Below the pieces are notes generated by a model. It was not told the DNA's origin and searched no databases. It was given only the letters and a program-made list of their open reading frames with translations. From an uncultured Clostridia bacterium (GTDB lineage Bacteria > Bacillota > Clostridia > Christensenellales > UBA1242), in assembly GCA_944377435.1 (NCBI GenBank), contig CALWEY010000088.1, positions 1-57,973 of the forward strand: a stretch of 57,973 nucleotides of DNA, in the 5' to 3' direction. This document shows, one piece after another, positions 20,087 through 53,103 of this stretch. The translations under genes were made by a program, and so were the position numbers. The stretch's first letter is position 1, and the number at the start of each line of letters is the position of its first letter.

Positions 20087-20196
20087 ATTTGTAGTATGTT
20101 ATAAATTCTATAAAATAAACAATAATTTTCCAAAAAATAGCAAAATAGTATAAAAACAAGTGTAATTAAATGTGATATAACATCATTGAGGTAATT

Positions 20197-23200: not shown

Positions 23201-23449
23201 GTGGCTAAAAATGATAGAGTTATTGATTATGCAAATTACATAATTGAAAACAATGCAACAATAAGAAAAACGGCGGTTTTTTTTGGATATAGCAAAAGTA
23301 CCGTGCATAACGATATTCAAAAAAAATTAAAAAAAATAAATGGCGACTTATATTTTAAAGTAAAAATCATTTTAAAAAATAACTTTTTAGAAAAACATTT
23401 AAGAGGTGGCGAGTCTACAAGACAAAAATATTTAAAATTAAATAAATAA
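23201..23449 (+). CDS. spoIIID: Sporulation transcriptional regulator SpoIIID
   Basis: ATIRKTAVFFGYSKSTVHNDI and HLRGGESTRQKY match B. subtilis SpoIIID (..FGVSKSTVHKDL.. / ..HLRGGEATK..). The GTG start follows AGGAGA. Confidence 0.9.
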   Translation: MAKNDRVIDYANYIIENNATIRKTAVFFGYSKSTVHNDIQKKLKKINGDLYFKVKIILKNNFLEKHLRGGESTRQKYLKLNK

Positions 23450-23475
23450 AATTATTTTTAATTATTAAAAATATT

Positions 23476-23512
23476 TCATATTTTAATTTATTAAAATATG
23501 ATTTTATTTTTT
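23476..23512 (+). terminator. All-A/T hairpin terminator candidate after spoIIID
   Basis: tcatattttaa / ttaaaatatga forms an 11-bp stem with a 4-nt loop, followed by ttttatttttt. Predicted stability is low. Confidence 0.4.
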
Positions 23513-23534
23513 AATTATTTTTTTAATAATTTTA

Positions 23535-23547
23535 TTTCTCCTTTTTT
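23535..23547. repeat. Left arm of a 13-bp perfect inverted repeat (tttctcctttttt), an anti-SD-like sequence
   Basis: Its reverse complement, aaaaaaggagaaa, recurs at 23685-23697, which is the ribosome-binding site of the giant gene. Confidence 0.7.
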
Positions 23548-23578
23548 AATATTTTTTATGTCGAAAATTGCTAAAAAA

Positions 23579-23597
23579 TTTATTATTATATAATAAA
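23579..23597. repeat. 19-bp direct repeat, copy 1 (tttattattatataataaa), ending 4 nt upstream of the -35 box
   Basis: An identical 19-mer lies at 23644-23662. Confidence 0.7.
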
Positions 23598-23601
23598 TTA
23601 T

Positions 23602-23630
23602 TTGACACAAGTTTTAGATAATAATATAAT
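23602..23630 (+). promoter_or_regulatory. Perfect consensus sigma-A promoter of the giant-gene operon
   Basis: TTGACA (23602-23607), exactly 17 nt, then TATAAT (23625-23630). Confidence 0.65.
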
Positions 23631-23643
23631 AATCATGAATTCG

Positions 23644-23662
23644 TTTATTATTATATAATAAA
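23644..23662. repeat. 19-bp direct repeat, copy 2, at about +8 to +26 of the predicted transcript
   Basis: Identical to 23579-23597, 65 bp start to start. Confidence 0.7.
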
Positions 23663-23684
23663 AACATAACAATTGAAGACAATA

Positions 23685-23697
23685 AAAAAAGGAGAAA
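23685..23697. repeat. Right arm of the 13-bp inverted repeat, containing the GGAGA Shine-Dalgarno of the giant gene
   Basis: aaaaaaggagaaa is the exact reverse complement of 23535-23547. Confidence 0.7.
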
Positions 23698-23701
23698 AAG
23701 G

Positions 23702-26700
23702 ATGAAAAGATTTAAAAAATTAGTAATGTCGATGCTTTTTGTTCTTGTTGCACTAACAGGTGTTGTTTTTTCAGCATGCAATGATAATAACGATAAAATG
23801 ACAATTACTTTAAGTTCAACAAATATTCAAATTTTTTTAGGAGAAAACAACAACACTGCTTTGCTCACTGCAACTGTTGAAAATGCAACAGATTATAGTG
23901 TTACCGTTCTTTACGATTCTGCTGACATAAAAGTTACAACAAACTATTTAGGTGATGGTGTTACCGAAATAACTGTTCTTGCATACAGACAATGTACAAA
24001 TGTTGATGTAACTGTTAAAGGTGCAAAAAAATCAGCAAACTTTACCGTGTCTGCAACTCTTCCTATTTCTTCAATTGTTCCAAAAGAAAACAATTATCAT
24101 ATGGCTTATGATAAAACAAATGGTGGCGAGTTTGTTTTAAATGAATCTCTATTTAGTATTTTACCACAAGGCACAAATCAAACTCAGTTAAAATATGAAC
24201 TTACAAATGCAATCGAAGGTGTTTCGATTGTCAATAATAAATTAGTGATTGATTCAAACCTTAGCACTGTTCCTAATTCGATAAGTGTTGAGGTTATTTC
24301 TGCTTATAAGGACAACATAAAAACTACTATTAAAATTGATGTAATTCAGGTTATAGATGCTCAAAGTGTTATTATTTGTGATGAATCTGGAAACGAACTT
24401 GGAGAAGGTGAAACTGAATTTAATATTTCAAGAACCAATCCTGACACTGCAATTCTTTCTTTAATTGTTCGTGTTCCATTTAGTGTTTCTCAAGAGCCAA
24501 TTGTTGTAACACCAAAATTTACATACCAAGACAAAGGATTGCTACAACAAAATGATGTAATAATTTCAAAAAATGACATGTTGGGCTGTTATGAATATTT
24601 GTTTACATTTACTTTAGATGACAAAAACTCAACAGCAGGTACAGACTTTTTATATTTTGAACTTTCATATGCTGATTACCCTGATATTAAATCTAGTACT
24701 GCTGACAAAGAATATGGCAAATTAAAAATTACAACTTTTGATGAAATTTCGGATATTTCATTGAAAACAGAGGAAGGCTATATAAATTTAGAATCGCCAA
24801 TCAATTTGTACACAAATTATTATTCTCAAAACAAAATAGAAGGTTATTCAATTAAATTTGAAGCAATTCCTACAACAGCAACTTCAAACAAATTGTCATT
24901 AAATGTAAACCTGGCTGATGAAAATTTAAAATATTTATCCGTTAAAAATTCAATGGGCAGTGAAATTGTTTTTGTAAATGGAAAATATCTATTTGAAAGT
25001 GGAGAAGAATTTTATTTTATTGCAAAAGATGGATTTAATGATAATGCCGGAATACAAGTTACTGTTAAGAGTGAAGAAAATCCTCTTATTGAAAAAAATA
25101 TAAATTTTGTATTTAAAAAGGGTATAAGTGAGTTCGGGTTTGTATATGATGGTGCAAGCATTCAAAATTCAAGAACTTACTACATAAACAATGATAGTTT
25201 AGATCAATTTTCAAGTACAGTTGTAAGCTTTGCTGTAAATCCTAGAATAGACAGTTTAAATCTTGAAAGTGCTAAAATAAACGGAAACAATATTGTGTTA
25301 AAATATCCAACATTTACAATCAGTGCAAATGGTGATATGTTTGAACTTTTAGAGCAAGATTGGGGAAATGGCGAACTTGCATATTTGATTGAAAATGGAA
25401 TGGTTGGCAACTCTTATAGATATGATTTAAAAATTAAATCTATTGATGGCAAAACAGGTGAAGGACTGATAACAGTTAAGTTTGAATCTGGTCAAGAAAT
25501 TTCTTGCAAGGTTATTGTAATTGAAGAACTAAATGATGTAAAAGTTGGCATTGATTCAACATTTAATACTTCTTCTGCTGTTGGAAATATAAATTTTGAT
25601 AACGATAGTATAAATTATGTTGCTGTAAAATTGGGACAATCTTTGCCTCTTGTATACAATGCAAACACTACATATACATCTGTTTCATATGGATTTTACG
25701 ATGTAGAAGACGATGACTTTAATATTGATGAAGATGGACTTATTCCTCCAACGAGTGCAGATGTGTATTCGTCGAACTCAAATATTATTAGTGCAAACTA
25801 TTTAAGGGCAATGAGTTATATATCTCCAATAAAAGTTGGCAGAGTTTGGGTAAAGGCTTCGTTTACAGGCAAGGAAATTAAGCTTAATAAAAATGGACAA
25901 GAATATAATTATGTTGATAAAACAATCGATAAATATTTTCTTGTTGAAATATATGTTCCAATTACTTCATTTAGTGCAACCAACAAAACCATAGAGTTGT
26001 ATGCATACGATGAAGTGGGTGAATTTAATAAAGATTTGTCAACAAAAACAATTAGTATTTTGTTTAATAACGGACAAACAACTCCAACATATAGTGATGT
26101 TTATTGGGATTTCTGGGGAGATATTAAACTTGAACAAAATAAAGTTTATGAATTTAAAGCCACAAATTCAGATGTTGTTTATTTTACAGTTGAAAATGTG
26201 GGAGGTGGTAAATTTAAATTTACAGCTCTTACAAGAAATGCTGATAATGAAGACTCTGCTTTTATCCCTACAACTTTAAATATATCTACAAAAGATTTGG
26301 GACTTGATAAAAACACAATAGATTATTCAATAAATGTTGTAATTAAAGAACCAGTCTTAGTTGATAACATAATTGCATCTAATGTTGCGGACAATGGTAT
26401 ATATCTTATTACAAAAAATCTTGAAGGTATTGTAAATGGAGATACAACTTTTAAAATATTAACAAAAGTTGGACCTGATAACGCATTAAATAAAGATGTA
26501 GCGTTTAGATTTATTCCAAATGTTGGAACCGCAAGTAATGTTATAAATATCACTGACGATGGACTTGTAAGTGTTGTTGGTGAACATGGTGGAAGTGGAA
26601 CAATTAGAATATTGCCAAAGGACGGAATTTTTGTTGATACAAATGGCAATGAATATTACAGAGATGATATTGTTTATTGCGATATTCCTGTAACTATTGG

Positions 26701-29700
26701 TGACGGAACATCAAGAGAAACATCAATAAGAATAAACAGTTTAAATGAAATTGTAGATGGCACATTCCACTATACATTATTAAACAGTGTAGATTATCCA
26801 CAAGTTTGGGAAAATAAGCCAGACACATTTAATGGTGGACTATATGGCAAAATTGATGGAAGTAATTTTGTTGCAACAATAAACTTAAATGGTGAAAGTT
26901 TGTTCGAAACGCTTGGAAGTTTTGCAATTCTTGAAGATTTAATTGTTTGCGGGCAAGTTCAAGGACAAGCAATGCTTGCAAATACAAATAATGGTACAAT
27001 AAAAAATGTTACCGTTGATTTATATCAGCAAAATGGCAAATATATTGCGTCAAAAGTTGAAACTGACCAGGCGAGTGCTGGTGGTTTAGTAAATATAAAT
27101 TATGGGCGAATTGAAAGCAGTACATTCGCTGGTTCTATTGTTGCACCTAGCGGTGTTGTTGGTGGAGTTTGTGCAATTAACTATGGTACAATAACTAATT
27201 CAAATGTACTTATTTATAATATGGAAACAGACTCGCAAATGAATTTTGTTGGGCAAACAATTGGCGGTCTTGTTGGAGAGATGGCACAAAACTCTCGCCT
27301 TGAAAAATCTTATATATATAATTTTAGTACAAATGCAAACTTTGATACTAAAGTAATGGGAGCGTTAGTTGGAATAATTTCATCAAACAACATAACAATA
27401 GACCAATGTTTCGCCGAAATTGGACAAACATCAAATTTCTACACAACAAAAAATAGTAATGTAAGTAAAAATGATGAAAATTTAATAAAAAATAGCTATA
27501 TTATCAGCAAATTTAATCAAAATATTGATGGTCAGGAAAGTTTACAAATTCAATTTAGTTATTTCATGACTCAAAACAATGGTAAATTCATTTTTGGAAA
27601 TACTAATAATACAAGTGATACATTCTTAAATGTTTCTATGGGAAGTTCTCAAATATGGAATAAAGTTGCAACAACAAACTATGGTTTCCCATATTTAACA
27701 AAAGTTGTTCCATTAAAAGCTTTAACAGGTGAAGATTTACAAAATATACAAATTCAAAATACCAGATTGTCACTAGCCGAAAATGAAAATGTTGCTGTAA
27801 TGTATTTATACAAAACTAACGGATATGTTTTAACAGACTATGAAAAACAAGTCCTAAATATGGTAAATACAATAAGTTTAAGTGAACTATTTGGCATTGA
27901 TAAAATAGATGGACTTTTAGTTTCTTCTAATGATTTAAATGTTATAAACAGTTCGACAAATGAACTTCAAGTAAAAAATTTAGGAATGGTAGAGTTGACA
28001 CTTCAATCTAAATATGATTTAAGTGTAGCACCAAAAACTATTGATATTTATGTTATATATGCCACAAATAATTTTACATTAAGTTATAAAGGTCAAAATC
28101 TTTTAAGTGATGCAACAATATCAATTAAAAATGGTGTAAGCGATAGTTTGCAATCTTCATTATCATCAACAATTGTTCTTACAAATAGAGAAATTCCACT
28201 TATGCAAAACAATTTTGAAGTGGTTTTTGAAACAGAAAATGAACAATCTAAATTTGTTGTTGGCAAAAATATAGGAACTCATACAATCGTTTCAAAATTC
28301 GAACAAGAAAATGGCGATATTTTAGATAGTGTAAGTTTTGATGTTTATCTAAAATTGTTAGATACAATTAAGGATACAGAAAATAAAGACAAAATTGAAG
28401 AAATAATAAAACAGAGTACATTAAGAAAGTTAACAATACAAAGAACATATGGAGCATTGTCTTTAAGTTCAACAATTAGCAGTGCAACTATTTCAGCAAG
28501 TGATGAATTGGATATAAACTTAACTGCAACATTTGATTCACAGAGCACAAACCAAACTGTAAATGTTGAAATTTATGACAGTGAAGGCAATGACATTTCT
28601 ACTTTAAATGTATTTGAAGATATAATTTTAACAAAAATAAGCGAAACTCAAAACAATAGTATTGATACTGTTAATTATATTGCTACAATAAAAATAAACA
28701 AATCATTAAATTCATCTTTAATAGATTTAAATGGTTATACAATTAGATTTATATCAGACGAATATATTTTTGCAGATGTAAAAATTTATATTCTTGCACA
28801 AGAAATATTAAGAGTTGATGTAAATAATTATGCACAAAAAGAAAGTAATTCAAGTGGTTCAATGTACAATTATTATCCAAATAATGTTCTTTCTCCTGGC
28901 ACTAGTGGACTACTTGATATAATGATTTATCCTTCTTACGCAAATTACACACATGTAAATGTTACAGCACAACCTGTAAACAATCAAAGTTTATCTCTTA
29001 TTGCAATGAAGAAAAATGATAATGCAACATATGATATTGATCTTGCAACAAATTTTGAATTTATTGAAAATGGTGTAAAAATATATGCAAAAGAAAGCAC
29101 AAGCGAAGTTGGAAGATATTATGTTAGAGTTGTAGTTCCTTCTACTGTAAATATAAATACTTTTTATAATATATATATTGACATATATAATGGAGATGAA
29201 AAAGTTTACACAGAAGTATATGCACTTTTAATTGTACCACAAGAAAAAGCAGGAATTACTGTTGAAGGTAAAGACAAAATCTTTGCAGTTAAAGGTGATA
29301 CTATTATAGCTGATGTTGTTTATGAACAAACGCAACAAATAGAAAGTATTGTTGCATATGACATGAATACTACAACTGTAAACAATAATGTTACAATAAT
29401 AAACAATCAAGATTTTACTAGTTATGCTACAAAATACTTTAAGGGAACATTAAGTATAACTCTTGGAGAAAATTGTGGTAATATAGATATTCAAATAACA
29501 ACTTCAAGATATGTAAATGGTGTAAAAGAAGAAGTATATTCAATCCTTAAAGTTTATGTTCTAGATTTTGAATTAGATTTTGAAAATACTCATTTAAACA
29601 ATGAGACGGGTAGCGATGTTATTTATGGAGATAAATATTTCTACAATTCACTAGAATTTAAAATTGCAGGCAAATATGTTAGTGGAGCGAATGGAATAAT

Positions 29701-32700
29701 AACATCAAGCGAAAGAGCTTACAATACATTCATAGAAAATAATTATTACTTAAACAACGCAACGGGATATGAAGTAAACTATGATACACAAAATAAAGAA
29801 ACATTATTAGAAAACTTATATTATGTAAACAACAATGTTTACACACCAGTAATTGTAAAAAATGCCGATGGCACATACACTACAGTATCAAGTGATATAA
29901 TTGCTGACTTTGCCATTGAAGAACAAACAGTTAATGGGGAAATTCAAAAAGTTATCAAATTCTTAGGTAAAAATATTGGCACTCAAAGAATGCTTTTGGA
30001 AATTAAAGCAAAAATGCCAGACGGAAGCATAAGAACTTATCAATATTTCTTTGATATTACTATTGCAAATTATGTAACTGAAGAACAACCGGAAGAAATA
30101 TCAAACGCAGAAGAATTTTTAAATGCGTTTACAGGTGATGTAGAGCAAGATTACATACTTACAAATGATATAATTTTATACGATTTTTCACCAATACAAG
30201 ACACATCAAAAGTAAGCAGTTTAGACGGAAATGGACATCAAATTATTCTCAGAAGTTTTAGTGACAGTGTTTTAAATCAAAGCACCGTTAGTTTATCTTT
30301 GTTCCAAAATGTAACTGCTAACACAACAATTAAAAATTTAAGATTAAATATTTATCATATTGATGCAATTACCATTGATGCAAATATAACAAATCAAGTT
30401 AATATCGCACCAATAGCAATAAACAATGCAGGTATCATTACAAATTCAGAAGTTGTAAGTTATAGATATTTAGCAAATCAAATAACTCCACAACTAAGCG
30501 GAATAAACATAAAAGCTAACAGCACTTTAAATGTTTCGGCTCAAACATCTGGTTTTGTTTTGTACAACTCGGGAATTATAACAAATAGTAGAGTTGGTGG
30601 CGAAAGTATAAATGTTTATAATGTTAGTGACAAGGGTTCGGTTACATATGAAACTGTATACCTAGATCCATTTGTTATCTCTTCATTTGGTGAGATAAGT
30701 GGTTTTGTTCATACTAACACAGGAAGAATTTCAAGCAGTTATGTATCAAATTTAAGAGAAATTAACAATTCAAATATAGATTACACAACAATAACAAGTG
30801 GTTTTGCCATAGAGAACTCTGGCAGAATAAGTATGAGTTATGCAAAAGGTGTAAAAGACAATATTCAAGATGTTCATGCAACAAAATACGGTATAGAAAC
30901 ATCGGGAATAAGTGCCGGATTTGTGTATGCTAACTCTGGAAACATAAGTGATAGTTACTCAAACATAACACTTACAAACCTTGGGGACAATCCAGGAAGA
31001 ACAAGTGCTGGTTTTGTTTACAACAACCAATCTAACGGTGTAATAAAAACATCTCTTTCACTTTCAAGAATAATCGGTGCAACAACAACACAAATGAACT
31101 TCTCAGGTGTTGATGATTGGGGTAATTGGCAAAACTTTGGAACAATTGAAAATTCTTACTACTATGATGAAGTTGCTCTTGAAGATTCAAGTATTTTAAT
31201 TGAAGAAGCATACGGAGAAAGTGCATCACTTGTTTCTTCTGTTACACTTGAAGAGTATTTCTATGGTTACAGTTTTGCAACAAATGAACAAAATGATGAT
31301 GGCATTTGGGTAATGACAACAACAGGTCCAGAACTAATTAGTGCCAATACAAAATCAGTTTCATTAAGATATTATAGCGTTGAAACTAATGATGAAAATA
31401 GACCAATATTTAATTATGCAACAAATTATGAGTATGGCTCTTTAAATAATCCTATCTTAATTAGAAACGCACAAGAATTTAGCAATGTATTTAGTGGATT
31501 AGGTGGAACCAGTGCATCAAAATTTGTAAATTTAGACAAAAAACAAGCATTTGGCAATTATAGACTTATAAATGATATAAATTTACAAGAACTAATATCT
31601 AGCGATGATGAACAAACATATAGATTAGCATCTTCAAGCCTTGCACTAACAGGAGTTTATAGAGAAGAAGGAAACGGCAAGGGTATTGGTAAATTTGACG
31701 GAAATGGATTTACAATTTCGGGATTTGCACTTTCTGATTCTTATGTAGAAAGCAGTGCAACTAACTTTGGTATGTTTGCAAGCATAGAGTCGGGCGCAAT
31801 ACTTATGAATGTAAATGTAACCATTGGAACTACGAATGCAGAAAATGAAGTTTTAGGTGTTGAAGCAAAAAATGTAAAATATGTTGGTGCTATCGCCGGA
31901 ACTGTTTATGATGCAAAAGTTGTAAATGTAAATTTAACATCTGCTTTTGAAAACACAAACACTGTCACAGTGAGAGGAAAAAATGTTGTCGGTGGGCTAA
32001 TTGGTAGAGTAATCGGAAATTCTTACATATTTAATTTATCTGCCTCAAATGTAAGTGTAACAGCAGCAAAATTCCCAGATTTCTATTATGGAAATGGTGC
32101 AAGTTATACTACATATAATCAATATTCAAGAATAAACGAAGCACAAAATAACAATATTTCATATGCAGGTGGAATAGTTGGTATTATTGATACATATGGC
32201 GACGACTCGATTACACAAGAAATGTTTGCAGATTCCATTGTTTCAACAAATGGAAATGCCGTTATGCTTAAAACCACTGGAACAAGTCAAATCACGGCAG
32301 GAACTGTCGGTGGTGTTATTGGATATGTTGGACCACTAACAATTATTCAAGATGCACTCTATGAATTGTCATTTGTGGACACACAAAACAGAACAATGCA
32401 AGGCTTATATTCTTATAATGGTTTTGCAGGTGGAGTTGTTGGATATAATAAAGGTTATTTAAGACAAGTTCGTTCTGAGCATGAAGAAAATTGGCAATTA
32501 AATATCATCGAAGATAATGTCGATGACTACTATAAAGGTAACTATGATGTTGATAGAGGCAACGAACAGTTATTTATTGGAAATGGATATAATCCTATTG
32601 CAATTGGTGGACTTGTTGGGCTTAATGTAAGTGGTAAAATAGAAAAATCTTATTCAAAAATAAATGTTTTAACTGATACAATTAATTCATTTGCAGGTGG

Positions 32701-43162: not shown

Positions 43163-43178
43163 AAAATAAGCAAAAGAA

Positions 43179-46100
43179 ATGGAGAGAAAAATGAAAAAAT
43201 TTTTAGTTATTATAAATATTTTTATATTGACACTTTGTGCCATAACTTTAACGGCGTGTGGTGAAAATTTTAGTAAATTTTCTCTCTCGTTTTCTAGCGC
43301 AAGCATTGATTTAACTTTAAACGAAGAAAAAGAATATGATATAAAAATTGAAAATTATTTTGAAACAGAAGTAAACTTTAATTTTGACTTTGATAAAAAT
43401 TTAGCACAAGTTGATGCCAACATAACAAATTTAGGCGATGGCACATATAGAGTAAAAATAAAAGGTTTGATGAGTGGAACAACAACACTTACAATAACTC
43501 TTTTGGAAGGAAATAAAAAATGTGTTATTCCTGTAAATGTATATGAACCTGTAACTGACTTTTCTTTAAAAGATAATTTAAGTTTGTATGTTGTTAGGGG
43601 ACAAAGTATAACATTTACTAGTGATATGTTTAACTTCTATCCTCAAACAACACTACAAAAAGAACTAGAATTTAGTGTTAATTCAATAAATTTAGAAAAT
43701 AATACATATTTTGCAGACTATGATTCACCTAATGTCGTTACGGTTACAGCAACAAGTGCATATAATAGCAGTTTAAACAGAAGTTTTGAACTTGTTGTTC
43801 TTGATGAAATTGATACGGAAGGAATTACACTTAGTTATAATGATGATACCGTTTTGCCAATAGATAAAGATGAAAATAGTTATATTGAAATAATTGCCAA
43901 CGATGATAGTGACTTTAAAAAGACTTACATAATGACATATGATGCAACAAAAAACTATGATTTTCAATTTATTTCAAAAGAAACAAACGAGTATTTTACC
44001 AGTTCAAAATGGGAATTAGAGAATAAATATAGTGTTGATATTGTAAACCAAAATGAAAAACTTGTTGAAGATACTCTTGTAATTAGAGTTTATGATGCAA
44101 ATTATAGACAATATTATAAAGATATAGAATATAAAATTAAATTTGTGTACATTCCACAATCTATAAAAATCAATGGACAAACCGTTGTTGATCAAGTAGA
44201 TTTATTTGATAATAATTTACAATCCACAGTTCAAAAAGCAAAAATTTCAATAAATCCAACAAACGCAACATATTCTAATGTAACTATTGAGTTTTATGTT
44301 GAAAATGCAGCAACTAGTGAACTAACAAGGTTAAGTTACACTCAGATAAAAGAATATTTGTGTGTAAAATACAAGGGAATTGAAATTAATGACAATCAAG
44401 TAATAACCGACCTTTCTGCTGAAATTGAATATTACGGAAGAAAAGTTTTGCCAACTGATTTATATGGAGAAAATATATATATTAGATTCGTATGTAATTC
44501 CGAATATTTAGAGACTCCAATTTATAATGAAATTCCTGTAATAATTAGAAAAAGTGCAACAGATTTTTATGTTAGTGAAGAATATATAAATTCAACAATA
44601 TATGTAAGTACAAAAGACGATGTTGTTACTTTTAATGGTTTTGTTGTTAAAGATGATGGTGCATATATTGGAAAAATTGTTGCCGTTGCTGATTATCTAA
44701 GTTCAGGTTATGTTGAAGTGTCACAAACACAAGATAATTTAGCATCGATTGACATAAAACCGTTAAAACAAGGTCAAGCTACCTATACTTTAATTTTGTC
44801 AAGCGGTATTTCTACAAGATTGACGATCGTTGTTAAAGAAGAATTTAGCATAAATGATTTTTGGCTTTATGTTTCTCCAAATAATACAGACAATGTGGCA
44901 GAAGTTAGTTACAAAAATATAAGAGAAAATTCTACACTAAGTTCGGTTGTTTTAAGGGGACTAAGTGAATTTGAAATTATAACAAACATAATGCCTAAAA
45001 ATATTGATAAAGATATGTACACTTTGTCATTTAGAAGCACAAATCCAGATGCGATTAGTGTGGAAAATAACAAAGTTAAAGCAAATAAAATTGACAATCA
45101 AACTTATAGAATTATCGTTGATTTAAGTTTGATGCAAGTTGACCAATTTAAAATTGTTGAAAATCCACAATTCCAACATAACAATCAATATTCGTTTGAT
45201 GTTAAGTGTTTTAAACCTATATCATCATTCAGTGTAGTTGGAGTAAATGCTGGAAAAAGCAATGAAACATATACAAGCAAAACGGAAGTTTATGTTGGCA
45301 ATATTGGTGAAGTTGATAAACTCATGTCCGAAGTAAACTTAAAACTTTTAATAGACAATAACGAACCGGAAGATGATGACGATAGAATAAAGGGCATTAA
45401 ATGGAGTTTTTCTACTACATATCTCGAAATAGAAAATGGAGTTTATGAACTTAGTGAATCAGGTTCTCAAATCGGATATTTTTATGCAGATGAAATGAGA
45501 TTTGTTTGCAGAAGTTCTAATTCTAGCGGATTTATTAAAATAACCGCAGAAATTATGGAATATGGTAAAGCAGTTTCAGCTTCCATACAAGTTGATATAA
45601 AATCATATGTACAAGTAAACAACATTTGGCTTAATAATTATGTTGAACAAATTTATTTAGACGCTGTTTACAATGAAATTACATTGTATCCATACATTGT
45701 TCCAAGCGATGCAACAAACAAAAATTATGTTGCATGGTTTGAAGCAAAAGATGGAACATCACCTGCAATTGTACAACTTGAATATGATTCTTCATATATC
45801 AAACTTTCATATTCAGGTCGAGGCGGTGGTCAAGGTACATTGCATATTGTTCCAAGTTCTAAATATAGTGGTGAATCATCTGGCGATGAAACACTTTACG
45901 AATCTTCATTAAATCTTGATGTTTATATTGGAGAAGGAACAATAGAAAACCCATTGCATATTAGGACATGGGAAGAATTTAAAAACATTGACCTAACAAA
46001 ACATTATGTAATAGACACAATAATTGATGCTCAGGGCGAAGAAATAACACCACTTGGAGAACTTACAGGTGGAATAAAAGGTTATGTAACAAATATAGTT

Positions 46101-49100
46101 AATAATCAGGTAACAAATGAAAATGTTGGCGGAATTGTAAATTTTGTTATAAAGAATCCAAATACATTAAGAAGTGTTAATTACTATGGTCTATTTACCA
46201 ATATTGCTGAGACAGGTTACTTAATGAATTTGACAATATCAGGTAAAATAGATGTAAGTGAAACAACATCAAACGATTCTTATGTTGGTTTAGTTTGTGG
46301 TATAAATAACGGACTTGTTAAAAATGTATCAGTTAGTTTACTTAAAAGCAATATTAGTTCTAACGGAACAAATAATTTATATGTTGGTGGTGTTTGTGGA
46401 GAGAATAATGGAAGCATAATTGCCGACATAATAGAAAAACAAGCTGGAGATTCAGTCGCAAATATTGACAACGAAAAAAGAATTGGAGAAAACACACTAT
46501 TTAATGATAATGAAACAACTAGTTCAGGAATTATAAATCCTAATTATCAAACTGTTAGACCAAATTCCACAATTATGGTTCAAATGTATGATATATTTAA
46601 TGTTTTTGTTAATAAAGCAAACAATGAAACAATATATTTTGGTGGAGTGGTTGGAAACAATAATGGACTTATAAGTTTTAGAAATAACAACGATTATATA
46701 AAATATAATTTGTATGGCACATCATCTGTTGTAAATATGCAAGTTAGTGGTGTAAGTAATAATTCATACATTGGAGGTGTGGCAGGTTATAACGACGGTG
46801 GGAACATTTTAAATCTTCTTGCAAAAGGCACTATCGATGCTAGCAACTTCTCGCATGTTGCAGGAATAATTGGTTCGTTAAATAAAGGAAAAATTTTAAA
46901 CAACACAACAAAAGTTTTTGTTAGAGGTAAAAACTATGTGGCTGGACTTGTTGGACTTGTTTCGCAAGATGCTGGTGAAAATGTAAACCTTTCAAATAAC
47001 ACTGTTGAAGCTATTGATGAAGGGAAAACAGGAATTGATGCTTCACTTATTATAAGTAACAAAGGTGATGATGGTAAAGATTGCGCACATCTATACTTTT
47101 TAGGTACAAATGCTGTTAAAGATGATGGAAAAAATATCTGTCAAACATATGTAAATAGAAACATAATTGCTGACGGCGAAAATGAAAATTTAACAAACTA
47201 TTATGGTGATGTAATAAAAATTTCTGCTGACGGAATAACAAAACACGAAACATTTAACAAAGCTTTAAATGTTGCTAATTTTAGTGAAATAATAGACACG
47301 GTAAAATATCCACAAAACACAATTATTTTGATGTATTATAAAGCTGTTGATGTAACAAATCAAAGTTTATTAAAAGATTTTAATACTCAAAAACTTCCAC
47401 AAGATTTAATATTGGAAGAATATAGAGATATTGAAATTAGTTTGTCTTCTAGTGCAAGCTCAGTTGTTTCAATATCTTCAATGGGCGAACTCGTTTTAAA
47501 TTCAAAAGGAACTTGCGTATTAACATTGTCATCATCAAATAACTACAAAGATAAAGTAGAGATAAAGGTTATTGTTACAAACTATATTTCCGATCTTCAA
47601 ATGTACTTAACTTCAGATAGATTGGGAAGTGCTATTACATCTGTAAATGTACTAAATGTTAATAACAGAAACATTCTCAACTTGTATCCAAAGTTTGTTG
47701 GTCAAGTTACAACAATAAACGGATATAGAATTGATACAATAGAAAACTCAGAAGCACTCTTAGAAATTGAAGCAGATGACAGTTATGTATCTGTTAAACA
47801 GTCGGGAAGAACTGTTATGCTTCAAGGTAATGGAACAAATAATTCTGTAAATAATTTGCCAATAGATTTTTATGTGTACATTCCTGTTATAGTTAACGGA
47901 ATAGAAACACGATATTATTTAGTTAAAAATCAAGATAATAATATGTTTGTTGCAAATGCAAAAAATAACTCTAATTTGCAGTTAAACATGAATTACACAC
48001 AAGGAATTTATAGTATTGAATTAGATAAAACAAATATGGACATTGTACCTAGTGATGTCATAAATGTCAGAGTACAATACTTAACCGATGACGAAAACGA
48101 CAGACTAAATCTTGTTATGAAATATCTTGAAAATGGTGTATTTATTGAATATAGTCAAGAAAATATAAGTGCATTTAATGAGTATTTTAAAAATGTTAGT
48201 GTAAGTGAACCTAAATTTGAAAATGGTAAATATTATGTAGATTATTTGTTTGAATTGAACACTGAAAGCGATGTAAAATTAGGCAATTATGAATTTGTGT
48301 TTTCAAGTTCAATTTCAGGAGTGTCAAAAACATTAAAAGTAAGATATTCAAGTCAGCCAATGGATAGTGTAATTATTAAAAATTATACTTTTGCTGATAA
48401 CCAGGATATAGAACTTGGCACACTAGATGATGGAAGTATAATTTACAACACAAGTTATACAATGCAGGAAACAAATACAATTACAGCAGGTAAAACAAAT
48501 ATTTTAAGAATTGTGGTAAATCCATATTATGCCGATTATTCTTATATTGAAGTTACAAATGATAATTCTAATATAAACAATGGAAAGGTTGTGCTATTTG
48601 GTCTTTTAAAACAATATAACAATCAACCAAATCAAGCGGTTGTATCAACTAACGGATACACAACAGCAAAAGGTATAAGAGTTTATAAAAAAGATATACA
48701 AGGTGGAGATTTACAAATTCTTTATAGATTGCATACAAATGTAATTGAAGGCGATAGTGTAACACTTAATGTAAACTTCTATAATGAAAATGGTGATATT
48801 GTTTATAGTCAAGAGCAAAAAGTATTGACAATAGCAATTGATAAAACCATTGATATCAGTATTTCAGGAAAAGAAAACTCAACTGGTAAATATTACTTGG
48901 CAAGAGGAATGTCATATGCATTAGATGTTAAATCTGTTGGATATGATACTGATGAAATTTATATAACATCATCATCACCTTATATAACTGTTATGCGTGA
49001 TGGTTCATCATTCTACTTACAAGTTGCACAAGATATAAATTATATTTCTGGACAAGAAGGAGCAGATGTTCTTATAACATACTATGGTAAGCGTTTAGTA

Positions 49101-52100
49101 AACGGACAAATGGTTGAGAGCAGTAAAAATAGTTTTGTCTGCACAGTTGTTGAGTATGTATTTGATGATTTAAATGCTGACAATATGTTTGCTGACAGTG
49201 AAATTTTATTGGGTGTTGGAAATGCTGTTGATATCAGAGATAAAATACTTGAAAAACTTGATATAGAATATTCAAATAGTGCAACGGGCGCAGTATCCCT
49301 TTTAAAAGAAAGCATAAAACAAAATGCGTCGTTCTATTATAAAAAAGGCGATGTGTATACTCCAATCACAGATTCAACAAATGAAGAAGTTGAAAAAGAG
49401 TATAAGTTAAATGGATATGTTTATACTCCATTAAAAGTTGGAGATAATACATTTAACTTTGGAATATATGTTGAATTATATTATTTGCAAGGCTATTTAA
49501 TTGTAAAAGAAATAGAAAAACCAGAAGAAATTAGTCAATCCGATATCAAAACTTTTGATATTAGTGTAGTGCAAAGCAGTTTGGAAGATGCTCCATTACC
49601 AATTTACACAGCAGAAGACTTAACGAGAATGATTGACGGTAATTATTATAGGCTGATGGCAGACATAGAACTTCCTTATGCGTTTAGTCCACTAACAGCA
49701 AAAATAAGAAGTTTAGATGGCAATGGCAAAAAGATTATAATAAACAGTGGTATATATAAAGATAATGATGCATATACAAACATAGAAAAATACGGACTTT
49801 TTGAAACGATAGATAGCAATACTGTAATTTCAAACTTAACTATTGAGATTAGTGGGTTTGGAACAACAATGTTCTCATTTGACAATTCTCTTTCGGCAAA
49901 CTCGTTTAATTTTGGACTTTTGGCGGGAGAAAATAATGGTGTAATAACAAATTGTTTTGTTACAATGTCAAATTCATCATCGTCTTTAATTGTTTCAAAC
50001 AACTCTTCTGTATCAAACACAAACACATCTTATATAGCAGGTCTTGTTGCAGTTAATAATGGCTTTATAACCAACAGTAGGGTAAATTTAAAACTTGAAT
50101 CAACAGGTGCAAACCTTAGTGGACTTGTTGCTGTAAACAATGGACATATTGCATCAAGTTATGTAAAAGATAGTTTGATTAAAAACTCAAGTTCAAATGC
50201 TAATAACTCAACAGGTGGATTAGTTGTTTTAAATAATGGAACAATTTTAACAAGTTTCATTGAAGGCTCGTACAACGAAGGAATAATTAAGATATATGCT
50301 GAAAATACAGTAAATATTTTAAGCGCTTCTTCAATAGCTGGTGCATTCGCTTATCAAAACGCTGGCACTATTGAAGATTGTTATGCAAATATTCCTGTTG
50401 TTGCTTCTTCAAGAAACTCAGGATTTGTTTACACAAACAACGGTTCAATAAAAAGATGTTACACTACTTCAAAACTTGGTGACGGCGATTATGAAAACTA
50501 TCCATTTATTGTAAGTCAAGGTGAAAATTCTTTAATTGAAAGTTGTTACTATTTAGACGACTCATTATTTAATGTAAATGTAAATCAATCAAATAAAAAC
50601 ATTGAAGGTCTACGAGCAACTTCACTAAGCGAGTTTGTTACAAGACATGAAGTAATAGACAATGTTGTACAACAAACAGAACTATTTACCGAATTTGTTG
50701 TAAATAAAAACAACGAAATAAACAGTGGTGTATGGTTCTTTGCACAAAGTGATAACGCACACGAATTTAAAGTTGGTGATACTATTTCAACAATGGATCA
50801 TCAAAAGTATATACAAAACACAAGTTATGTATCGTACGCACAATATAGCTATAAAGGAGTTGCACAACAATTTGTTGCAAATAGACTGCAACTTGTTTCA
50901 GCAAATACTTTAGCATATAGTGAAAAAGATTTAACATCTTCATATGATGACGAAACCGGAATATACACTTATAACTATTTTACTTCGAGCATATACGCAG
51001 AAGATGGTTCTAAATACAATCCAATAATAATATATAGTGCTTCACAATTTGAAAATCACATTCTTAACAATTCATTAAAAAATGTAAATACATTAAATTA
51101 TAGATTTGTTAAAGACATAAATTACACTGATGAAAATCTAGTTGTTAGTTCATTGTATAAAACAACTTTTGCTGGATACATAGAAGGTAATGGAATGGAA
51201 ATTTCAGGATTTTCTATCAACACAAACGAAAGTTTGTTAAGTTCAGGTTATTTCTCACAAATTGGCAATGGTTTAAGTTATGCAACAATTCAAAACTTGG
51301 TATTTAGTCCAAAATATCTAAACCTTCCAAACTCATACAATGTAGGCACTGTTGCAGGAACGGTCAATAGAGCATATGTTTATAACATAAGCGTTGATGC
51401 TTACAAATTCAACAATCAAGGCATGGTAATTCTTGGAAGAAATATTGTAGGTGGAATATTTGGAAGAACAACTTCTAGCTTTGATATAAATGGCCTTTAT
51501 TCTTCAATTTCCGTAAACGCATATTACACTAATTTAAGCGCAGATTATAACAGTGATAGCGTTCAACAAAAAATTCTATACGAAGAAATGGGAACAAATA
51601 CTGACACTGTTTCTTACGCTGGTAGCATAGTTGGTTATGTTGCTGGCACAGGAACAATAAAAAATCCAAAGATTACAAACGATGTTGCTTCAATCGGTAT
51701 GATTTGTGGATTTATGTTTGGTGGAATTGGTATAAATGCGACAGTCGACAATATAAATCTTGTAACTTCATACGGACAACAAAACTTTATAAGAGCAAGC
51801 GCATATGCAGGTTTGATTGTTGGAGATTTAAAAGGTACATTAACAAATGTAACAATAGAAAAGTCAGCAAGCCAAGAAAAACTTTATGACCTATTTAGGT
51901 TAGAACCAAGAGTTCCATTGGCAGTTGGTGGTGTTAGTGGTATTGTTAGAGGTGGTACAGTTATAAATGTGAACATATATGAAGATATCACTTTTGAAAA
52001 TACAAAAACTTTAATACCTAGTGCTGTTGGTGGACTTGCCGGAAAAGTGTTGCAAACAATTAAAGTTAACAACTTTAACTATTATGGACAAAACATCGTA

Positions 52101-52757
52101 GGAAGAAATATTGTTGGTGGTGTTGTTGGAGAACTTAAAATTGACGCAAACAAAAATGTCAATGTAAGCCTTACAAATATAAATGTCGGTGCAGATAGCA
52201 AAACGACAATAAAAATTCAAAAGCCATCAAGCGATGAAGATGTATTAGAAATGTATATTGGTGGTATTGTTGGAAAGGTGTCAAGCGACTACTCAAATAA
52301 TACAGACCTATCAAAAACAATAATGCTTGATAATATTTCATTAAATGCAATAATAGAAACAGATGTAAAGGTTTATGGATCAATTCTAACAGGTGAGATT
52401 ATTCCAACAATTTATCAATTAAGTGCAGGATATATATTTGGTGGATATTTTAGTAGTGAAAATGTTAAATTTACTGATTGGGATTTAACAATAGGAACTA
52501 ATTTTGATACGGATATAACAACATCATTGAATGTTCAAAATATACGCAATGGCAATAATGCAAGCAACATTCCAAAAGAATTTCAAATAGATTTTGGTTA
52601 TGTAATAGCATTAAATGTAAATAATTTAGATGATACATTAGTTCTAAATATCCCAAAAACACAGGTTAAAATTTCATTAAATGGCAAAGAGTATACAATA
52701 CCTAGTGAACAAACACAAAATGCCTATGAAATATATCAGCAATTTATAGGTGCATAA
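43179..52757 (+). CDS. Giant (3192 aa) predicted surface lipoprotein, a paralogue-like partner with the same Ig-like plus GLUG beta-helix architecture (three modules)
   Basis: It starts 16 nt after the upstream stop; the ATG at 43191 is an alternative start. The signal peptide has the lipobox LTAC (Cys27, nt 43257). GLUG-type repeats include VGGVCGENNGSI, IAGLVAVNNGFITNSRV and VGGVVGELK. It has no C-terminal anchor motif. Confidence 0.8.
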   Translation: MERKMKKFLVIINIFILTLCAITLTACGENFSKFSLSFSSASIDLTLNEEKEYDIKIENYFETEVNFNFDFDKNLAQVDANITNLGDGTYRVKIKGLMSGTTTLTITLLEGNKKCVIPVNVYEPVTDFSLKDNLSLYVVRGQSITFTSDMFNFYPQTTLQKELEFSVNSINLENNTYFADYDSPNVVTVTATSAYNSSLNRSFELVVLDEIDTEGITLSYNDDTVLPIDKDENSYIEIIANDDSDFKKTYIMTYDATKNYDFQFISKETNEYFTSSKWELENKYSVDIVNQNEKLVEDTLVIRVYDANYRQYYKDIEYKIKFVYIPQSIKINGQTVVDQVDLFDNNLQSTVQKAKISINPTNATYSNVTIEFYVENAATSELTRLSYTQIKEYLCVKYKGIEINDNQVITDLSAEIEYYGRKVLPTDLYGENIYIRFVCNSEYLETPIYNEIPVIIRKSATDFYVSEEYINSTIYVSTKDDVVTFNGFVVKDDGAYIGKIVAVADYLSSGYVEVSQTQDNLASIDIKPLKQGQATYTLILSSGISTRLTIVVKEEFSINDFWLYVSPNNTDNVAEVSYKNIRENSTLSSVVLRGLSEFEIITNIMPKNIDKDMYTLSFRSTNPDAISVENNKVKANKIDNQTYRIIVDLSLMQVDQFKIVENPQFQHNNQYSFDVKCFKPISSFSVVGVNAGKSNETYTSKTEVYVGNIGEVDKLMSEVNLKLLIDNNEPEDDDDRIKGIKWSFSTTYLEIENGVYELSESGSQIGYFYADEMRFVCRSSNSSGFIKITAEIMEYGKAVSASIQVDIKSYVQVNNIWLNNYVEQIYLDAVYNEITLYPYIVPSDATNKNYVAWFEAKDGTSPAIVQLEYDSSYIKLSYSGRGGGQGTLHIVPSSKYSGESSGDETLYESSLNLDVYIGEGTIENPLHIRTWEEFKNIDLTKHYVIDTIIDAQGEEITPLGELTGGIKGYVTNIVNNQVTNENVGGIVNFVIKNPNTLRSVNYYGLFTNIAETGYLMNLTISGKIDVSETTSNDSYVGLVCGINNGLVKNVSVSLLKSNISSNGTNNLYVGGVCGENNGSIIADIIEKQAGDSVANIDNEKRIGENTLFNDNETTSSGIINPNYQTVRPNSTIMVQMYDIFNVFVNKANNETIYFGGVVGNNNGLISFRNNNDYIKYNLYGTSSVVNMQVSGVSNNSYIGGVAGYNDGGNILNLLAKGTIDASNFSHVAGIIGSLNKGKILNNTTKVFVRGKNYVAGLVGLVSQDAGENVNLSNNTVEAIDEGKTGIDASLIISNKGDDGKDCAHLYFLGTNAVKDDGKNICQTYVNRNIIADGENENLTNYYGDVIKISADGITKHETFNKALNVANFSEIIDTVKYPQNTIILMYYKAVDVTNQSLLKDFNTQKLPQDLILEEYRDIEISLSSSASSVVSISSMGELVLNSKGTCVLTLSSSNNYKDKVEIKVIVTNYISDLQMYLTSDRLGSAITSVNVLNVNNRNILNLYPKFVGQVTTINGYRIDTIENSEALLEIEADDSYVSVKQSGRTVMLQGNGTNNSVNNLPIDFYVYIPVIVNGIETRYYLVKNQDNNMFVANAKNNSNLQLNMNYTQGIYSIELDKTNMDIVPSDVINVRVQYLTDDENDRLNLVMKYLENGVFIEYSQENISAFNEYFKNVSVSEPKFENGKYYVDYLFELNTESDVKLGNYEFVFSSSISGVSKTLKVRYSSQPMDSVIIKNYTFADNQDIELGTLDDGSIIYNTSYTMQETNTITAGKTNILRIVVNPYYADYSYIEVTNDNSNINNGKVVLFGLLKQYNNQPNQAVVSTNGYTTAKGIRVYKKDIQGGDLQILYRLHTNVIEGDSVTLNVNFYNENGDIVYSQEQKVLTIAIDKTIDISISGKENSTGKYYLARGMSYALDVKSVGYDTDEIYITSSSPYITVMRDGSSFYLQVAQDINYISGQEGADVLITYYGKRLVNGQMVESSKNSFVCTVVEYVFDDLNADNMFADSEILLGVGNAVDIRDKILEKLDIEYSNSATGAVSLLKESIKQNASFYYKKGDVYTPITDSTNEEVEKEYKLNGYVYTPLKVGDNTFNFGIYVELYYLQGYLIVKEIEKPEEISQSDIKTFDISVVQSSLEDAPLPIYTAEDLTRMIDGNYYRLMADIELPYAFSPLTAKIRSLDGNGKKIIINSGIYKDNDAYTNIEKYGLFETIDSNTVISNLTIEISGFGTTMFSFDNSLSANSFNFGLLAGENNGVITNCFVTMSNSSSSLIVSNNSSVSNTNTSYIAGLVAVNNGFITNSRVNLKLESTGANLSGLVAVNNGHIASSYVKDSLIKNSSSNANNSTGGLVVLNNGTILTSFIEGSYNEGIIKIYAENTVNILSASSIAGAFAYQNAGTIEDCYANIPVVASSRNSGFVYTNNGSIKRCYTTSKLGDGDYENYPFIVSQGENSLIESCYYLDDSLFNVNVNQSNKNIEGLRATSLSEFVTRHEVIDNVVQQTELFTEFVVNKNNEINSGVWFFAQSDNAHEFKVGDTISTMDHQKYIQNTSYVSYAQYSYKGVAQQFVANRLQLVSANTLAYSEKDLTSSYDDETGIYTYNYFTSSIYAEDGSKYNPIIIYSASQFENHILNNSLKNVNTLNYRFVKDINYTDENLVVSSLYKTTFAGYIEGNGMEISGFSINTNESLLSSGYFSQIGNGLSYATIQNLVFSPKYLNLPNSYNVGTVAGTVNRAYVYNISVDAYKFNNQGMVILGRNIVGGIFGRTTSSFDINGLYSSISVNAYYTNLSADYNSDSVQQKILYEEMGTNTDTVSYAGSIVGYVAGTGTIKNPKITNDVASIGMICGFMFGGIGINATVDNINLVTSYGQQNFIRASAYAGLIVGDLKGTLTNVTIEKSASQEKLYDLFRLEPRVPLAVGGVSGIVRGGTVINVNIYEDITFENTKTLIPSAVGGLAGKVLQTIKVNNFNYYGQNIVGRNIVGGVVGELKIDANKNVNVSLTNINVGADSKTTIKIQKPSSDEDVLEMYIGGIVGKVSSDYSNNTDLSKTIMLDNISLNAIIETDVKVYGSILTGEIIPTIYQLSAGYIFGGYFSSENVKFTDWDLTIGTNFDTDITTSLNVQNIRNGNNASNIPKEFQIDFGYVIALNVNNLDDTLVLNIPKTQVKISLNGKEYTIPSEQTQNAYEIYQQFIGA

Positions 52758-52789
52758 TTTATTTGACTAAAATTTAATATCCTTATGGT

Positions 52790-52801
52790 ATTCCTTAGGA
52801 A
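52790..52801. repeat. Left arm of a 12-bp inverted repeat (attccttaggaa) upstream of the rpoB promoter
   Basis: It is the reverse complement of ttcctaaggaat at 52901-52912. Confidence 0.6.
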
Positions 52802-52871
52802 AAACAATATATAAAAAACACTTTTATTGTCAAAAACTTACTAAAAAATAAAAAATGTTTTTGTAATTGTG

Positions 52872-52900
52872 TTGACAAAAATGTAGCAAGTGTTTATAAT
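52872..52900 (+). promoter_or_regulatory. Perfect consensus sigma-A promoter upstream of rpoB
   Basis: TTGACA (52872-52877), exactly 17 nt, then TATAAT (52895-52900). It predicts a leader of about 200 nt. Confidence 0.6.
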
Positions 52901-52912
52901 TTCCTAAGGAAT
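52901..52912. repeat. Right arm of the 12-bp inverted repeat, abutting the -10 box and covering the predicted transcription start
   Basis: ttcctaaggaat begins immediately after TATAAT. Confidence 0.6.
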
Positions 52913-53103
52913 ATTATTCGAATAGTGATTAAAAATACAATATTCTAATTTAATAATTTGAAAATACAGGCACATAACACGGGGAAAACTGTGTGATTTT
53001 GCTTGTTATTTTCATGTAAAAAGAAAGTAAATTAAACAGGCAAAAACAAAAAAGAAGCATGCTGTTATAATTTTACTAATTTAAGTACAAGGAGAATGTA
53101 GAA

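Follow-up and report, generated by a model that had tools for sequence, protein, structure and literature searches.

S. aureus Ebh, SasG/Aap and Bap are very large, modular, extended surface proteins in which a stalk of tandem small domains lifts the distal parts past the cell wall. Giant modular surface proteins are already known, and the family described here differs from them in four ways: its members carry a lipobox anchor at a size of 3-6.8 thousand residues, they are invisible to domain libraries, they occur as a paralogous pair, and they occupy a conserved, core-like locus beside rpoBC. The pair analyzed here, genes A and B, lies in a stretch of 57,973 nucleotides from an uncultured Clostridia bacterium (hereafter the window; GenBank assembly GCA_944377435.1, contig CALWEY010000088.1, positions 1 to 57,973 of the forward strand). 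An original prediction made from the letters of this DNA had proposed that the two genes encode a membrane-tethered mega-adhesin or surface-coat system. Our analysis makes it fairly probable that A and B are anciently duplicated, co-transcribed giant lipoproteins forming a core part of the cell surface in an uncultured, low-G+C, probably spore-forming clade of gut Clostridia, where they would serve as a surface coat or adhesion organelle and not as an enzyme or toxin. The two genes and the signals around them are the following (residue numbers in this text are those of the encoded proteins).

23702..43162, plus strand: gene A, A-type giant lipoprotein of 6486 residues.
43179..52757, plus strand: gene B, B-type giant lipoprotein of 3192 residues as an open reading frame (ORF), 3188 residues from the ATG at 43191.
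23602..23630, plus strand: sigma-A-type promoter of the A-B pair, TTGACA-17-TATAAT, 12/12 consensus positions.
23690..23695, plus strand: ribosome-binding site AGGAGA of gene A, read directly in the sequence.
43181..43186, plus strand: ribosome-binding site GGAGAG of gene B, which implies a start at the ATG at 43191.
23702..23779, plus strand: signal peptide and lipobox of A (VFSAC, Cys26).
43179..43259, plus strand: signal peptide and lipobox of B (LTAC, Cys27).
23579..23597, plus strand: copy 1 of an exact 19-nt direct repeat, TTTATTATTATATAATAAA, immediately ahead of the -35 box.
23644..23662, plus strand: copy 2 of this repeat, 14 nt past the -10 box.

Both ORFs are free of internal stops, lie on the same plus strand and are separated by 16 nt. 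At the base composition found here (38.5% A and 32.4% T, with about 9% of random codons being stops) a random stop-free run of 6486 codons has a chance of ~10^-264. The listed start of ORF B is the ATG at 43179 (MERKMKKF...), but the true start is probably the second ATG, at 43191 (MKKFLVI...), since the spacing of GGAGAG fits this codon and the relatives show a GGAGA-N5-7-ATGAAAAA layout. The N-terminus of A reads MKRFKKLVMSMLFVLVALTGVVFSAC (Cys26) and that of B MERKMKKFLVIINIFILTLCAITLTAC (Cys27); in both signal peptides a basic stretch is followed by a hydrophobic stretch and then by the lipobox. The sequences MKRFKK...VVFSAC26 of A and ...ITLTAC27 of B both fit a PROSITE-PS51257-like pattern, the Phe at position -3 of A being less common, and the lipobox pattern is present in 123 of 133 full-length, Met-initiated family members, most of the exceptions looking like mis-called starts. 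A motif search found no LPXTG, NPXTG or HExxH in either protein, and a hydropathy scan found no membrane-like hydrophobic segment beyond the signal peptides, the C-termini included. Genes for Lgt and LspA are both absent from the window; an LGT (PF01790) gene is encoded in a relative, L012.

The window holds two 12/12 consensus promoters, one ahead of A and one ahead of rpoB, and TTGACA/TATAAT-like sites are also present upstream of the A-type gene in the relatives L006-L009. Each copy of the 19-nt repeat contains a 14-bp palindrome, TTATTATATAATAA, and the two copies bracket the promoter of gene A, so that the repeat looks like a pair of candidate operator sites. The first copy also occurs on a short contig, L005, apparently of the same species. 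No terminator-like site was detected between the stop codon of B and the rpoB promoter. The original prediction had listed most of these features, namely two uninterrupted ORFs 16 nt apart, a signal peptide with a lipobox on each, the lack of LPXTG, C-terminal anchor and HExxH, the perfect promoter ahead of the pair and the missing terminator after it; all of these stand, the start of B being corrected.

Comparison of the two proteins reveals that A and B are collinear paralogues: residues 1722-2829 of A align with residues 1760-2821 of B at 25% identity, residues 674-1137 of A align with 608-1080 of B, and B as a whole is collinear with about the first 3000 residues of A. A hidden Markov model (HMM) of the shared region was used to scan 1.84 billion cluster representatives, and this search retrieved 350 proteins with E<=1e-3, among which 208 reached E<=1e-30. 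The matches form two size groups, of ~4000-6800 and 2800-3750 residues, in which the matched region lies at collinear positions. The best score was to the A core for 49 of 50 long proteins and to the B core for 79 of 85 mid-size proteins; this agreement between core and size (128/135) indicates that the A/B duplication is old. The best-conserved stretch of the family comprises residues ~2100-3000 in both A and B, and past residue ~4500 of A BLAST aligns only 3-6 of 160 family sequences. All members with checked source names are unnamed or annotated as 'hypothetical protein' and come from 'Clostridia bacterium' or 'Christensenellales bacterium' metagenome-assembled genomes (MAGs), Christensenellales being the label that some submitters give to members of the clade; the genome of L002 carries the deposit name 'uncultured Christensenella sp.'. 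Cultured isolates are not represented among the family members and related loci examined.

Searches of Pfam, NCBIfam and the PDB sequences, with single sequences as well as with the family profile, recognized essentially nothing. The Pfam family Glug (PF07581) reaches 22.6 bits in the second half of A, where the gathering score is 20.5 but no individual stretch attains it, and falls at residues 3496-3515; it gives no match in the first half of A or in B, the literal GLUG motif is absent, and only one of 15 relatives tested is matched. Peptidase_M26_N gives a faint match in one relative (P0019), and Pfam detects no M26 domain in A or B. Neither Big_x models nor, at E<=0.1, SLH or CWB2 match either protein in Pfam. 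Matches to PTEN_C2, DUF2501, aBig_2, neogenin and Fab were all below threshold and were taken as noise. A word-indexed protein search returned zero matches for residues 1701-2900 and 5287-6486 of A though identical or near-identical sequences (P0001, P0151, P0152) are in the collection, and is not evidence of absence; the N/S/I/T-rich composition of A probably saturates the candidate list of the word index, and zero matches do not amount to orphan status. Exact look-up gave no match for B and only two short contigs for SpoIIID, and a metagenome scan with the first 600 residues of A gave none. No description of the family was found in the literature searched; the Clostridia examples in a paper on giant genes are RCC1, Listeria-Bacteroides-repeat and dockerin proteins, not members of this family (bioRxiv 10.1101/2023.11.21.568195). 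The statement of the original prediction that the pair has no obvious counterpart is thus correct for characterized proteins and wrong overall, given the hundreds of uncharacterized homologues.

When B was used to scan a set holding one genome for each GTDB species, three other species (L001-L003) were identified in which intact A-type and B-type ORFs are followed by rpoB and rpoC. Identity between the window and these loci amounts to 97-98% for RpoB, 83-86% for B and 63-64% for the C-terminal half of A. The corresponding ratio of nonsynonymous to synonymous substitution rates (dN/dS, Nei-Gojobori) lies at 0.03-0.04 in rpoB; B reaches 0.10 and the C-terminal half of A 0.26-0.28. Purifying selection thus acts on both giant genes, A being much more relaxed or diversifying. 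These data also bear on the question of whether the ORFs could be a chimera of the assembly, a pseudogene or a frame left open by chance, a concern raised by the fact that the window is a MAG contig and that giant ORFs are sometimes mis-assembled repeats. The same A protein is found on an independent 571-kb contig, and intact orthologues are present in the three other species and in many metagenome assemblies. Moreover, internal sequence repeats are nearly absent in A and B, leaving almost nothing to mislead an assembler and making repeat-driven mis-assembly unlikely, and both the dN/dS values well below 1 and the chance figure given above speak against this reading. Independent assemblies and selection rule out an assembly artefact, and the probability left to a chimera, pseudogene or chance frame is negligible. 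The two genes are thus genuine and arranged like an operon, in agreement with the original prediction.

The distribution of predicted folds along the two proteins was analyzed with AlphaFold2 (AF2) models, Foldseek searches and HMMs of the recurring modules, and can be summarized as follows.

23780..26701, plus strand: residues 27-~1000 of A, ~9 predicted immunoglobulin-like (Ig-like) beta-sandwich domains, read as a membrane-proximal stalk (AF2 and Foldseek).
26759..27709, plus strand: residues ~1020-1336 of A, predicted beta-helix module 1 (DSSP short-strand pattern in the model; module HMM E 7.5e-6).
28862..30076, plus strand: residues 1721-2125 of A, ~4 predicted Ig-like domains (AF2 and Foldseek).
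30077..31186, plus strand: residues 2126-2495 of A, predicted beta-helix module 2 with the cap YILTNDI...SLDGNGHQI; it starts the best-conserved family core.
31424..32821, plus strand: residues 2575-~3040 of A, predicted beta-helix module 3 with the cap NPILIR...YRLINDI...FDGNGFTI and GG[LIV]xG turns.
33845..37018, plus strand: residues ~3382-4439 of A, beta-helix-like modules at ~3382-3660, 3894-4041 and 4141-4439 with spacers between (module HMM E 1e-13 to 9e-3; internal similarities).
40049..43159, plus strand: residues ~5450-6486 of A, fastest-evolving distal region, predicted from sequence to be beta-rich.
46107..47066, plus strand: residues ~977-1296 of B, predicted beta-helix module 1 (module HMM).
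49578..52283, plus strand: residues ~2134-3035 of B, conserved core with predicted beta-helix modules at 2134-2465, 2603-2838 and 2823-3035.
52188..52754, plus strand: residues ~3004-3192 of B, variable distal tip.

The model of residues 27-1226 of A (mce7c67104cae; multiple sequence alignment of 11 rows) is all-beta, with a predicted local distance difference test score (pLDDT) of 82.2 and a predicted TM score (pTM) of 0.38, the latter as would be expected of beads on a string; it shows ~9 beta-sandwich domains up to residue ~1000, followed by runs of short strands. Foldseek aligns it with long Ig-domain arrays at E-values of 3e-24 to 1e-12, among them 7r5k_10 (a human nuclear pore complex chain), ciliary central-apparatus proteins, contactins and cadherins, and, from bacteria, the S-layer proteins SbsB, Sap and EA1, the GhpA neck and E. 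coli alpha-2-macroglobulin. The model of residues 1721-2830 (m719a592c7afb; 15 alignment rows; pLDDT 81.6, pTM 0.66) is also all-beta and comprises ~4 beta-sandwich domains followed by two blocks of regular short strands, many with pLDDT >90; Foldseek again retrieves Ig arrays, the top match being the PrgB Ig-like domains (8beg, E 4.5e-7). A right-handed parallel beta-helix is made of stacked coils, each of three short strands, that repeat every ~22-25 residues; the strands in the putative beta-helix parts of the models are 3-5 residues long, and the top Foldseek matches are driven by the Ig-like parts. For residues 1721-2830, some matches among the viral models of BFVD extend over ~900 alignment columns to pectin-lyase-fold proteins, including a phage protein. 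The Ig-like arrays of A are defined at the level of the predicted fold only, with no Pfam Big_x match in sequence.

The beta-helix blocks have a recognizable signature: a conserved cap at the start (...I.TAEEF...Y.L..DI.L....P....SLDGNG..I...), Asn/Gly ladders, GG[LIV]xG turns and an end motif F.G..F......G.W.M...GP.L. HMMs built from the blocks detected further copies in A at residues ~1076-1336, 3382-3660, 3894-4041 and 4141-4439, with a weak one at ~4935-5192, and copies in B at ~977-1296, 2134-2465, 2603-2838 and 2823-3035, giving at least 6 modules in A and 3-4 in B. The original prediction had described both proteins as mosaics of Ig-like and GLUG-type beta-helix stretches. Its two fold types are supported by predicted structures of segments of A, modelling by segments being what it had proposed, whereas the 'GLUG' label is marginal by sequence: the Pfam search that it had called for gave only the Glug match in A and nothing for the Big models.

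Many enzymes that degrade glycans, and many phage depolymerases, adopt a right-handed beta-helix, and the modules could also be pectate-lyase-like polysaccharide lyases or hydrolases, A and B then being cell-surface enzyme platforms acting on dietary or host glycans. The organisms live in the gut, and BFVD gave matches to phage glycoside hydrolases as well as to a 'Pectin lyase fold domain-containing protein'. However, no Pfam or NCBIfam catalytic family is found in the 9678 residues of A and B or in 15 relatives, no PDB sequence relative is retrieved even with the profile, and the many repeated modules look structural. Most of the invariant columns hold Gly, Asn, aromatic or aliphatic residues, as is typical of beta-helix turns and caps, and form no conserved acidic or basic cluster. 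We therefore regard an enzymatic role as unlikely.

Divergence climbs toward the C-termini, i.e. toward the ends away from the lipid anchor. The proportion of nonsynonymous relative to synonymous differences (pN/pS) is 0.50 in the last ~190 residues of B versus ~0.1 in the rest of the protein, and 0.4-0.58 at residues 5450-6100 of A. The large size, the beta-helix content and a divergence that peaks at the C-terminus recall polymorphic toxins or contact-dependent competition systems, in which a filament carries a variable C-terminal effector as in CdiA or Rhs. Here, however, the divergence is spread over ~2000 residues with no sharp boundary, and the variable region is still under purifying selection. 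In addition, neither gene is followed by a small immunity-like ORF, A leading directly to B, and B to a conserved non-coding spacer and rpoB, and no toxin, Rhs, PT-HINT or LXG family was detected in Pfam or NCBIfam. A toxin system is very improbable on these grounds.

The genomic context was compared between the window and related loci, whose gene orders are listed below (minus strand where indicated).

L001-L003, RpoB 97-98% identical: A, B, rpoB, rpoC.
L010 and L011, human gut, with identical RpoB on contigs up to 1.13 Mb, RpoB 75%: A, B (2871 residues), rpoB, rpoC.
L008, RpoB 74%: LPG synthase, farther on M23, ACP, SpoIIID, PP-loop ATPase (minus), A (4919 residues), B (2865 residues), rpoB.
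L006, RpoB identity not known: LPG synthase, farther on M23, ACP, SpoIIID, PP-loop ATPase (minus), A (4728 residues), B (3199 residues), folD.
L007, RpoB identity not known: SpoIIID, PP-loop ATPase (minus), A (4719 residues), B.
L009, RpoB identity not known: gyrBA (minus), PP-loop ATPase (minus), A (4990 residues), B (3400 residues).
L004, RpoB identity not known: A (5976 residues), B (3258 residues), spoVG, farther on spoIIGA-sigE-sigG.
L014, RpoB 66%: M23-ACP-SpoIIID, seven genes, one B-type lipoprotein (3627 residues), rpoB-rpoC.
L012, RpoB 78%: rpoB preceded by neither a giant gene nor rplJ-rplL.

In each of the ten loci where both genes are visible (window, L001, L003, L004, L006-L011), B comes directly after A, and synteny with spoIIID and/or rpoBC persists down to 66-75% RpoB identity. 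The position of the pair between the spoIIID region and rpoBC is ancestral and not the result of a recent insertion, because it is kept at 74-75% RpoB identity (L008, L010, L011) and a single B-type gene stands upstream of rpoBC at 66% (L014). An origin by insertion or horizontal gene transfer was rejected: besides the depth of the synteny, the G+C content of A and B (27-32%) matches that of the rest of the window. The missing rplJL-rpoB link, in turn, is a property of the clade and not caused by the A-B block, since L012, which has no giant genes at rpoB, also lacks rplJ-rplL there. The original prediction, in which the block replaces the conserved spoIIID and rpoB junctions, is not borne out by this comparison of the spoIIID-rpoB interval, which it had itself suggested; the locus is old, core and syntenic, and this corrects the impression of a recent insertion.

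The same prediction had taken the organism for a sporeformer, which is now probable: SpoIIID and an M23 peptidase are encoded in the window, and SpoVG, SpoIIGA, sigE and sigG in the relative L004. The fixed place of the pair just downstream of spoIIQ-like M23, acpP-like and spoIIID genes, with M23 peptidase-ACP-SpoIIID upstream in the window, L006, L008 and L014, might suggest sporulation-specific proteins, for instance components of the spore surface or exosporium, or of a bridge between mother cell and forespore, in a lineage that has sporulation genes. Against this, the promoter is a perfect sigma-A consensus and not of sigma-E or sigma-K type, with similar sites in the relatives. The pair lies away from spoIIID in L009, seven genes separate spoIIID from the giant gene in L014, and the adjacency to rpoBC is equally conserved while having no sporulation meaning. 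We consider a sporulation-specific role to be quite improbable.

The immediate flanks of the pair comprise the following elements.

23201..23449, plus strand: spoIIID (PF12116, 97 bits), conserved upstream neighbour.
52758..53103, plus strand: B-rpoB spacer, which holds the rpoB promoter, an inverted repeat and a leader hairpin.
53104..56787, plus strand: rpoB, downstream neighbour in many, not all, lineages.
L006 9094-9825, L007 3457-4170, L008 9124-9834 and L009 9049-9768, minus strand: PP-loop ATPase region, compared with window positions 23450-23701.

The B-rpoB spacer is ~90% identical across four species (window, L001-L003), which exceeds the conservation of the synonymous sites of the flanking genes. 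It contains the rpoB promoter at 52872-52900, flanked by a 13-nt inverted repeat (TATTCCTTAGGAA at 52789-52801 and TTCCTAAGGAATA at 52901-52913), and, in the rpoB leader at 52977-52994, a conserved terminator-like hairpin with a T-run that may be an attenuator. An Rfam search detected no family at the gathering score in the window, the spacer included. On the other side of the pair, only 252 nt separate spoIIID from A in the window. In the distant relatives L006-L009, a PP-loop ATPase gene (PF01171, ATP_bind_3, minus strand) is found directly upstream of the A-type gene; in L006-L008 it stands between spoIIID and the A-type gene, and it is missing from the window at 23450-23701. Farther upstream, the window encodes an ACP, an M23 peptidase, an Fe-ADH-like protein, a polysaccharide deacetylase, an LPG-synthase-type membrane protein, Mfd and Pth. 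Two window ORFs, at 507-2756 (749 residues) and 15256-16926 (556 residues), have no Pfam match; L006 and L008 have ORFs of 551-557 residues, likewise lacking a recorded Pfam family, next to the LPG-synthase-type gene at the equivalent position or close to it, their likeness to the 556-residue ORF being one of size and position. A minus-strand pair at 6394-8781, encoding a DnaD/DnaB_2-type replication initiation protein (484 residues) and a DnaI/IstB-like AAA+ helicase loader (307 residues), sits among mostly plus-strand genes, and GC skew is negative solely in that 6-8 kb bin. In L014, a gene for an 896-residue TraG/HerA-like P-loop ATPase (DUF87, AAA_10, P-loop_TraG) precedes the lone B-type gene within 7234-20884, and no A-type gene adjoins the latter.

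Taken together, the data suggest how the giant lipoproteins could be produced and displayed. Transcription of both genes would be driven by the strong, vegetative promoter of sigma-A type, and the conserved signal peptide and lipobox point to Sec export, lipidation of the lipobox cysteine by Lgt and cleavage by signal peptidase II (LspA), after which the lipidated N-terminus would be held in the outer leaflet of the cytoplasmic membrane. An Ig domain is usually 3.5-4 nm long, and the ~9 predicted Ig-like domains that follow the anchor could span the Gram-positive wall. Beyond this stalk, right-handed beta-helix modules would alternate with Ig-like arrays and project outward, B ending after ~3000 residues and A running ~3400 residues farther into its fastest-evolving part. 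The outcome would be long, cell-coating fibres, of the order of 100 nm if extended, in which the conserved proximal parts are structural and the variable distal ends meet host or dietary glycans, other cells, phages or IgA; the fast distal evolution seen in dN/dS and in the decay of the alignments is consistent with exposure to host, phage or immune pressure. We favour a constitutive surface coat or fibre, adhesive or protective, over a dispensable accessory adhesin, because deep synteny, constant pairing and purifying selection are the behaviour of core genes. Of the mega-adhesin or surface coat originally proposed, the tethered surface fibre or coat is retained as the best reading, and the function as adhesin or coat stays an inference.

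Several points weigh against this interpretation. Expression, lipidation, surface location and binding are all read from sequence and prediction. No adhesive, lectin or wall-binding domain was recognized in Pfam or NCBIfam, and the core-like conservation is more in keeping with a structural coat than with a classical accessory adhesin, for which reason 'adhesin' may be the wrong word. The beta-helix assignment itself draws on sequence motifs, on the DSSP pattern of the models and on weak matches to Glug or to pectin lyase, and the beta-helix fold is also used by polysaccharide-degrading enzymes. Finally, the modelled parts of A are residues 27-1226 and 1721-2830, and the distal ~2000 residues, where the function may lie, are outside them.

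A more far-reaching version of the coat model can be put forward tentatively, and we hold it to be rather doubtful. In this version the collinear first ~3000 residues of A and B would serve for their co-assembly into a heteromeric fibre that spans the wall. The fibre would be the outer surface structure that defines the clade as a whole and a lipid-anchored functional stand-in for an S-layer; it would be so essential that its linkage to rpoBC, older than the A/B duplication, was never lost, and its hypervariable tip would set strain-specific interactions with host mucus, IgA or phages. If this were true, its members would rank with the largest lipoproteins known from bacteria.

The surface coat or fibre that we favour has several implications. 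The organisms are recurrent in human and animal gut metagenomes (the RpoB sequence identical to that of the L010 lineage is indexed in 53 collection blocks, Hadza samples included), and they spend ~29 kb of genome on two proteins that no annotation resource recognizes. A and B are probably what the cell presents to the host, to phages and to its neighbours, and they are thus a candidate surface antigen or phage receptor for the clade. The definition of the family, moreover, helps to annotate hundreds of 'hypothetical' giant genes.

Among known systems, the streptococcal M26 zinc metalloproteases (IgA1 protease, Zmp; PF07581 Glug, PF05342 Peptidase_M26_N) resemble A and B in their GG[LIV]xG turns and predicted beta-helix, whereas A and B have neither the M26 catalytic domain nor HExxH, and the Glug match is marginal in A and absent in B. 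The E. coli alpha-2-macroglobulin ECAM (PDB 5a42, 4ziq) is likewise a large lipoprotein with many Ig-like (MG) domains, and Foldseek retrieves it at E ~2e-14; it is, however, a periplasmic protein of ~1650 residues, Pfam detects no alpha-2-macroglobulin or thioester family in A and B, and the match is that of a generic Ig array (TM 0.09). Ig-like arrays also occur in the S-layer proteins SbsB, Sap and EA1 (Foldseek E 6e-16 to 1e-14), and a cell-coating role is plausible. These, however, are proteins of ~700-900 residues that assemble into 2-D lattices and attach to wall polymers through SLH domains, whereas A and B are 4-8 times longer, lipid-anchored and, by the Pfam search, devoid of SLH or CWB2. 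FHA/CdiA, autotransporter passengers and Aureispira GhpA are long beta-helix and/or Ig-like fibres with a variable distal end (GhpA neck, E 3e-15); they cross an outer membrane by two-partner, type V or type IX secretion, and CdiA-like systems differ further from A and B, which have no immunity gene and would use Sec and a lipobox in a presumed monoderm. As to Ebh, SasG/Aap and Bap, these have an LPXTG/sortase or C-terminal membrane anchor and are highly repetitive, whereas A and B have an N-terminal lipobox, almost no internal repeats and predicted beta-helix modules. What the two groups share is size, modularity and an extended stalk, and A and B exemplify lipoprotein anchoring at a size at which sortase or C-terminal anchors are the textbook solution.

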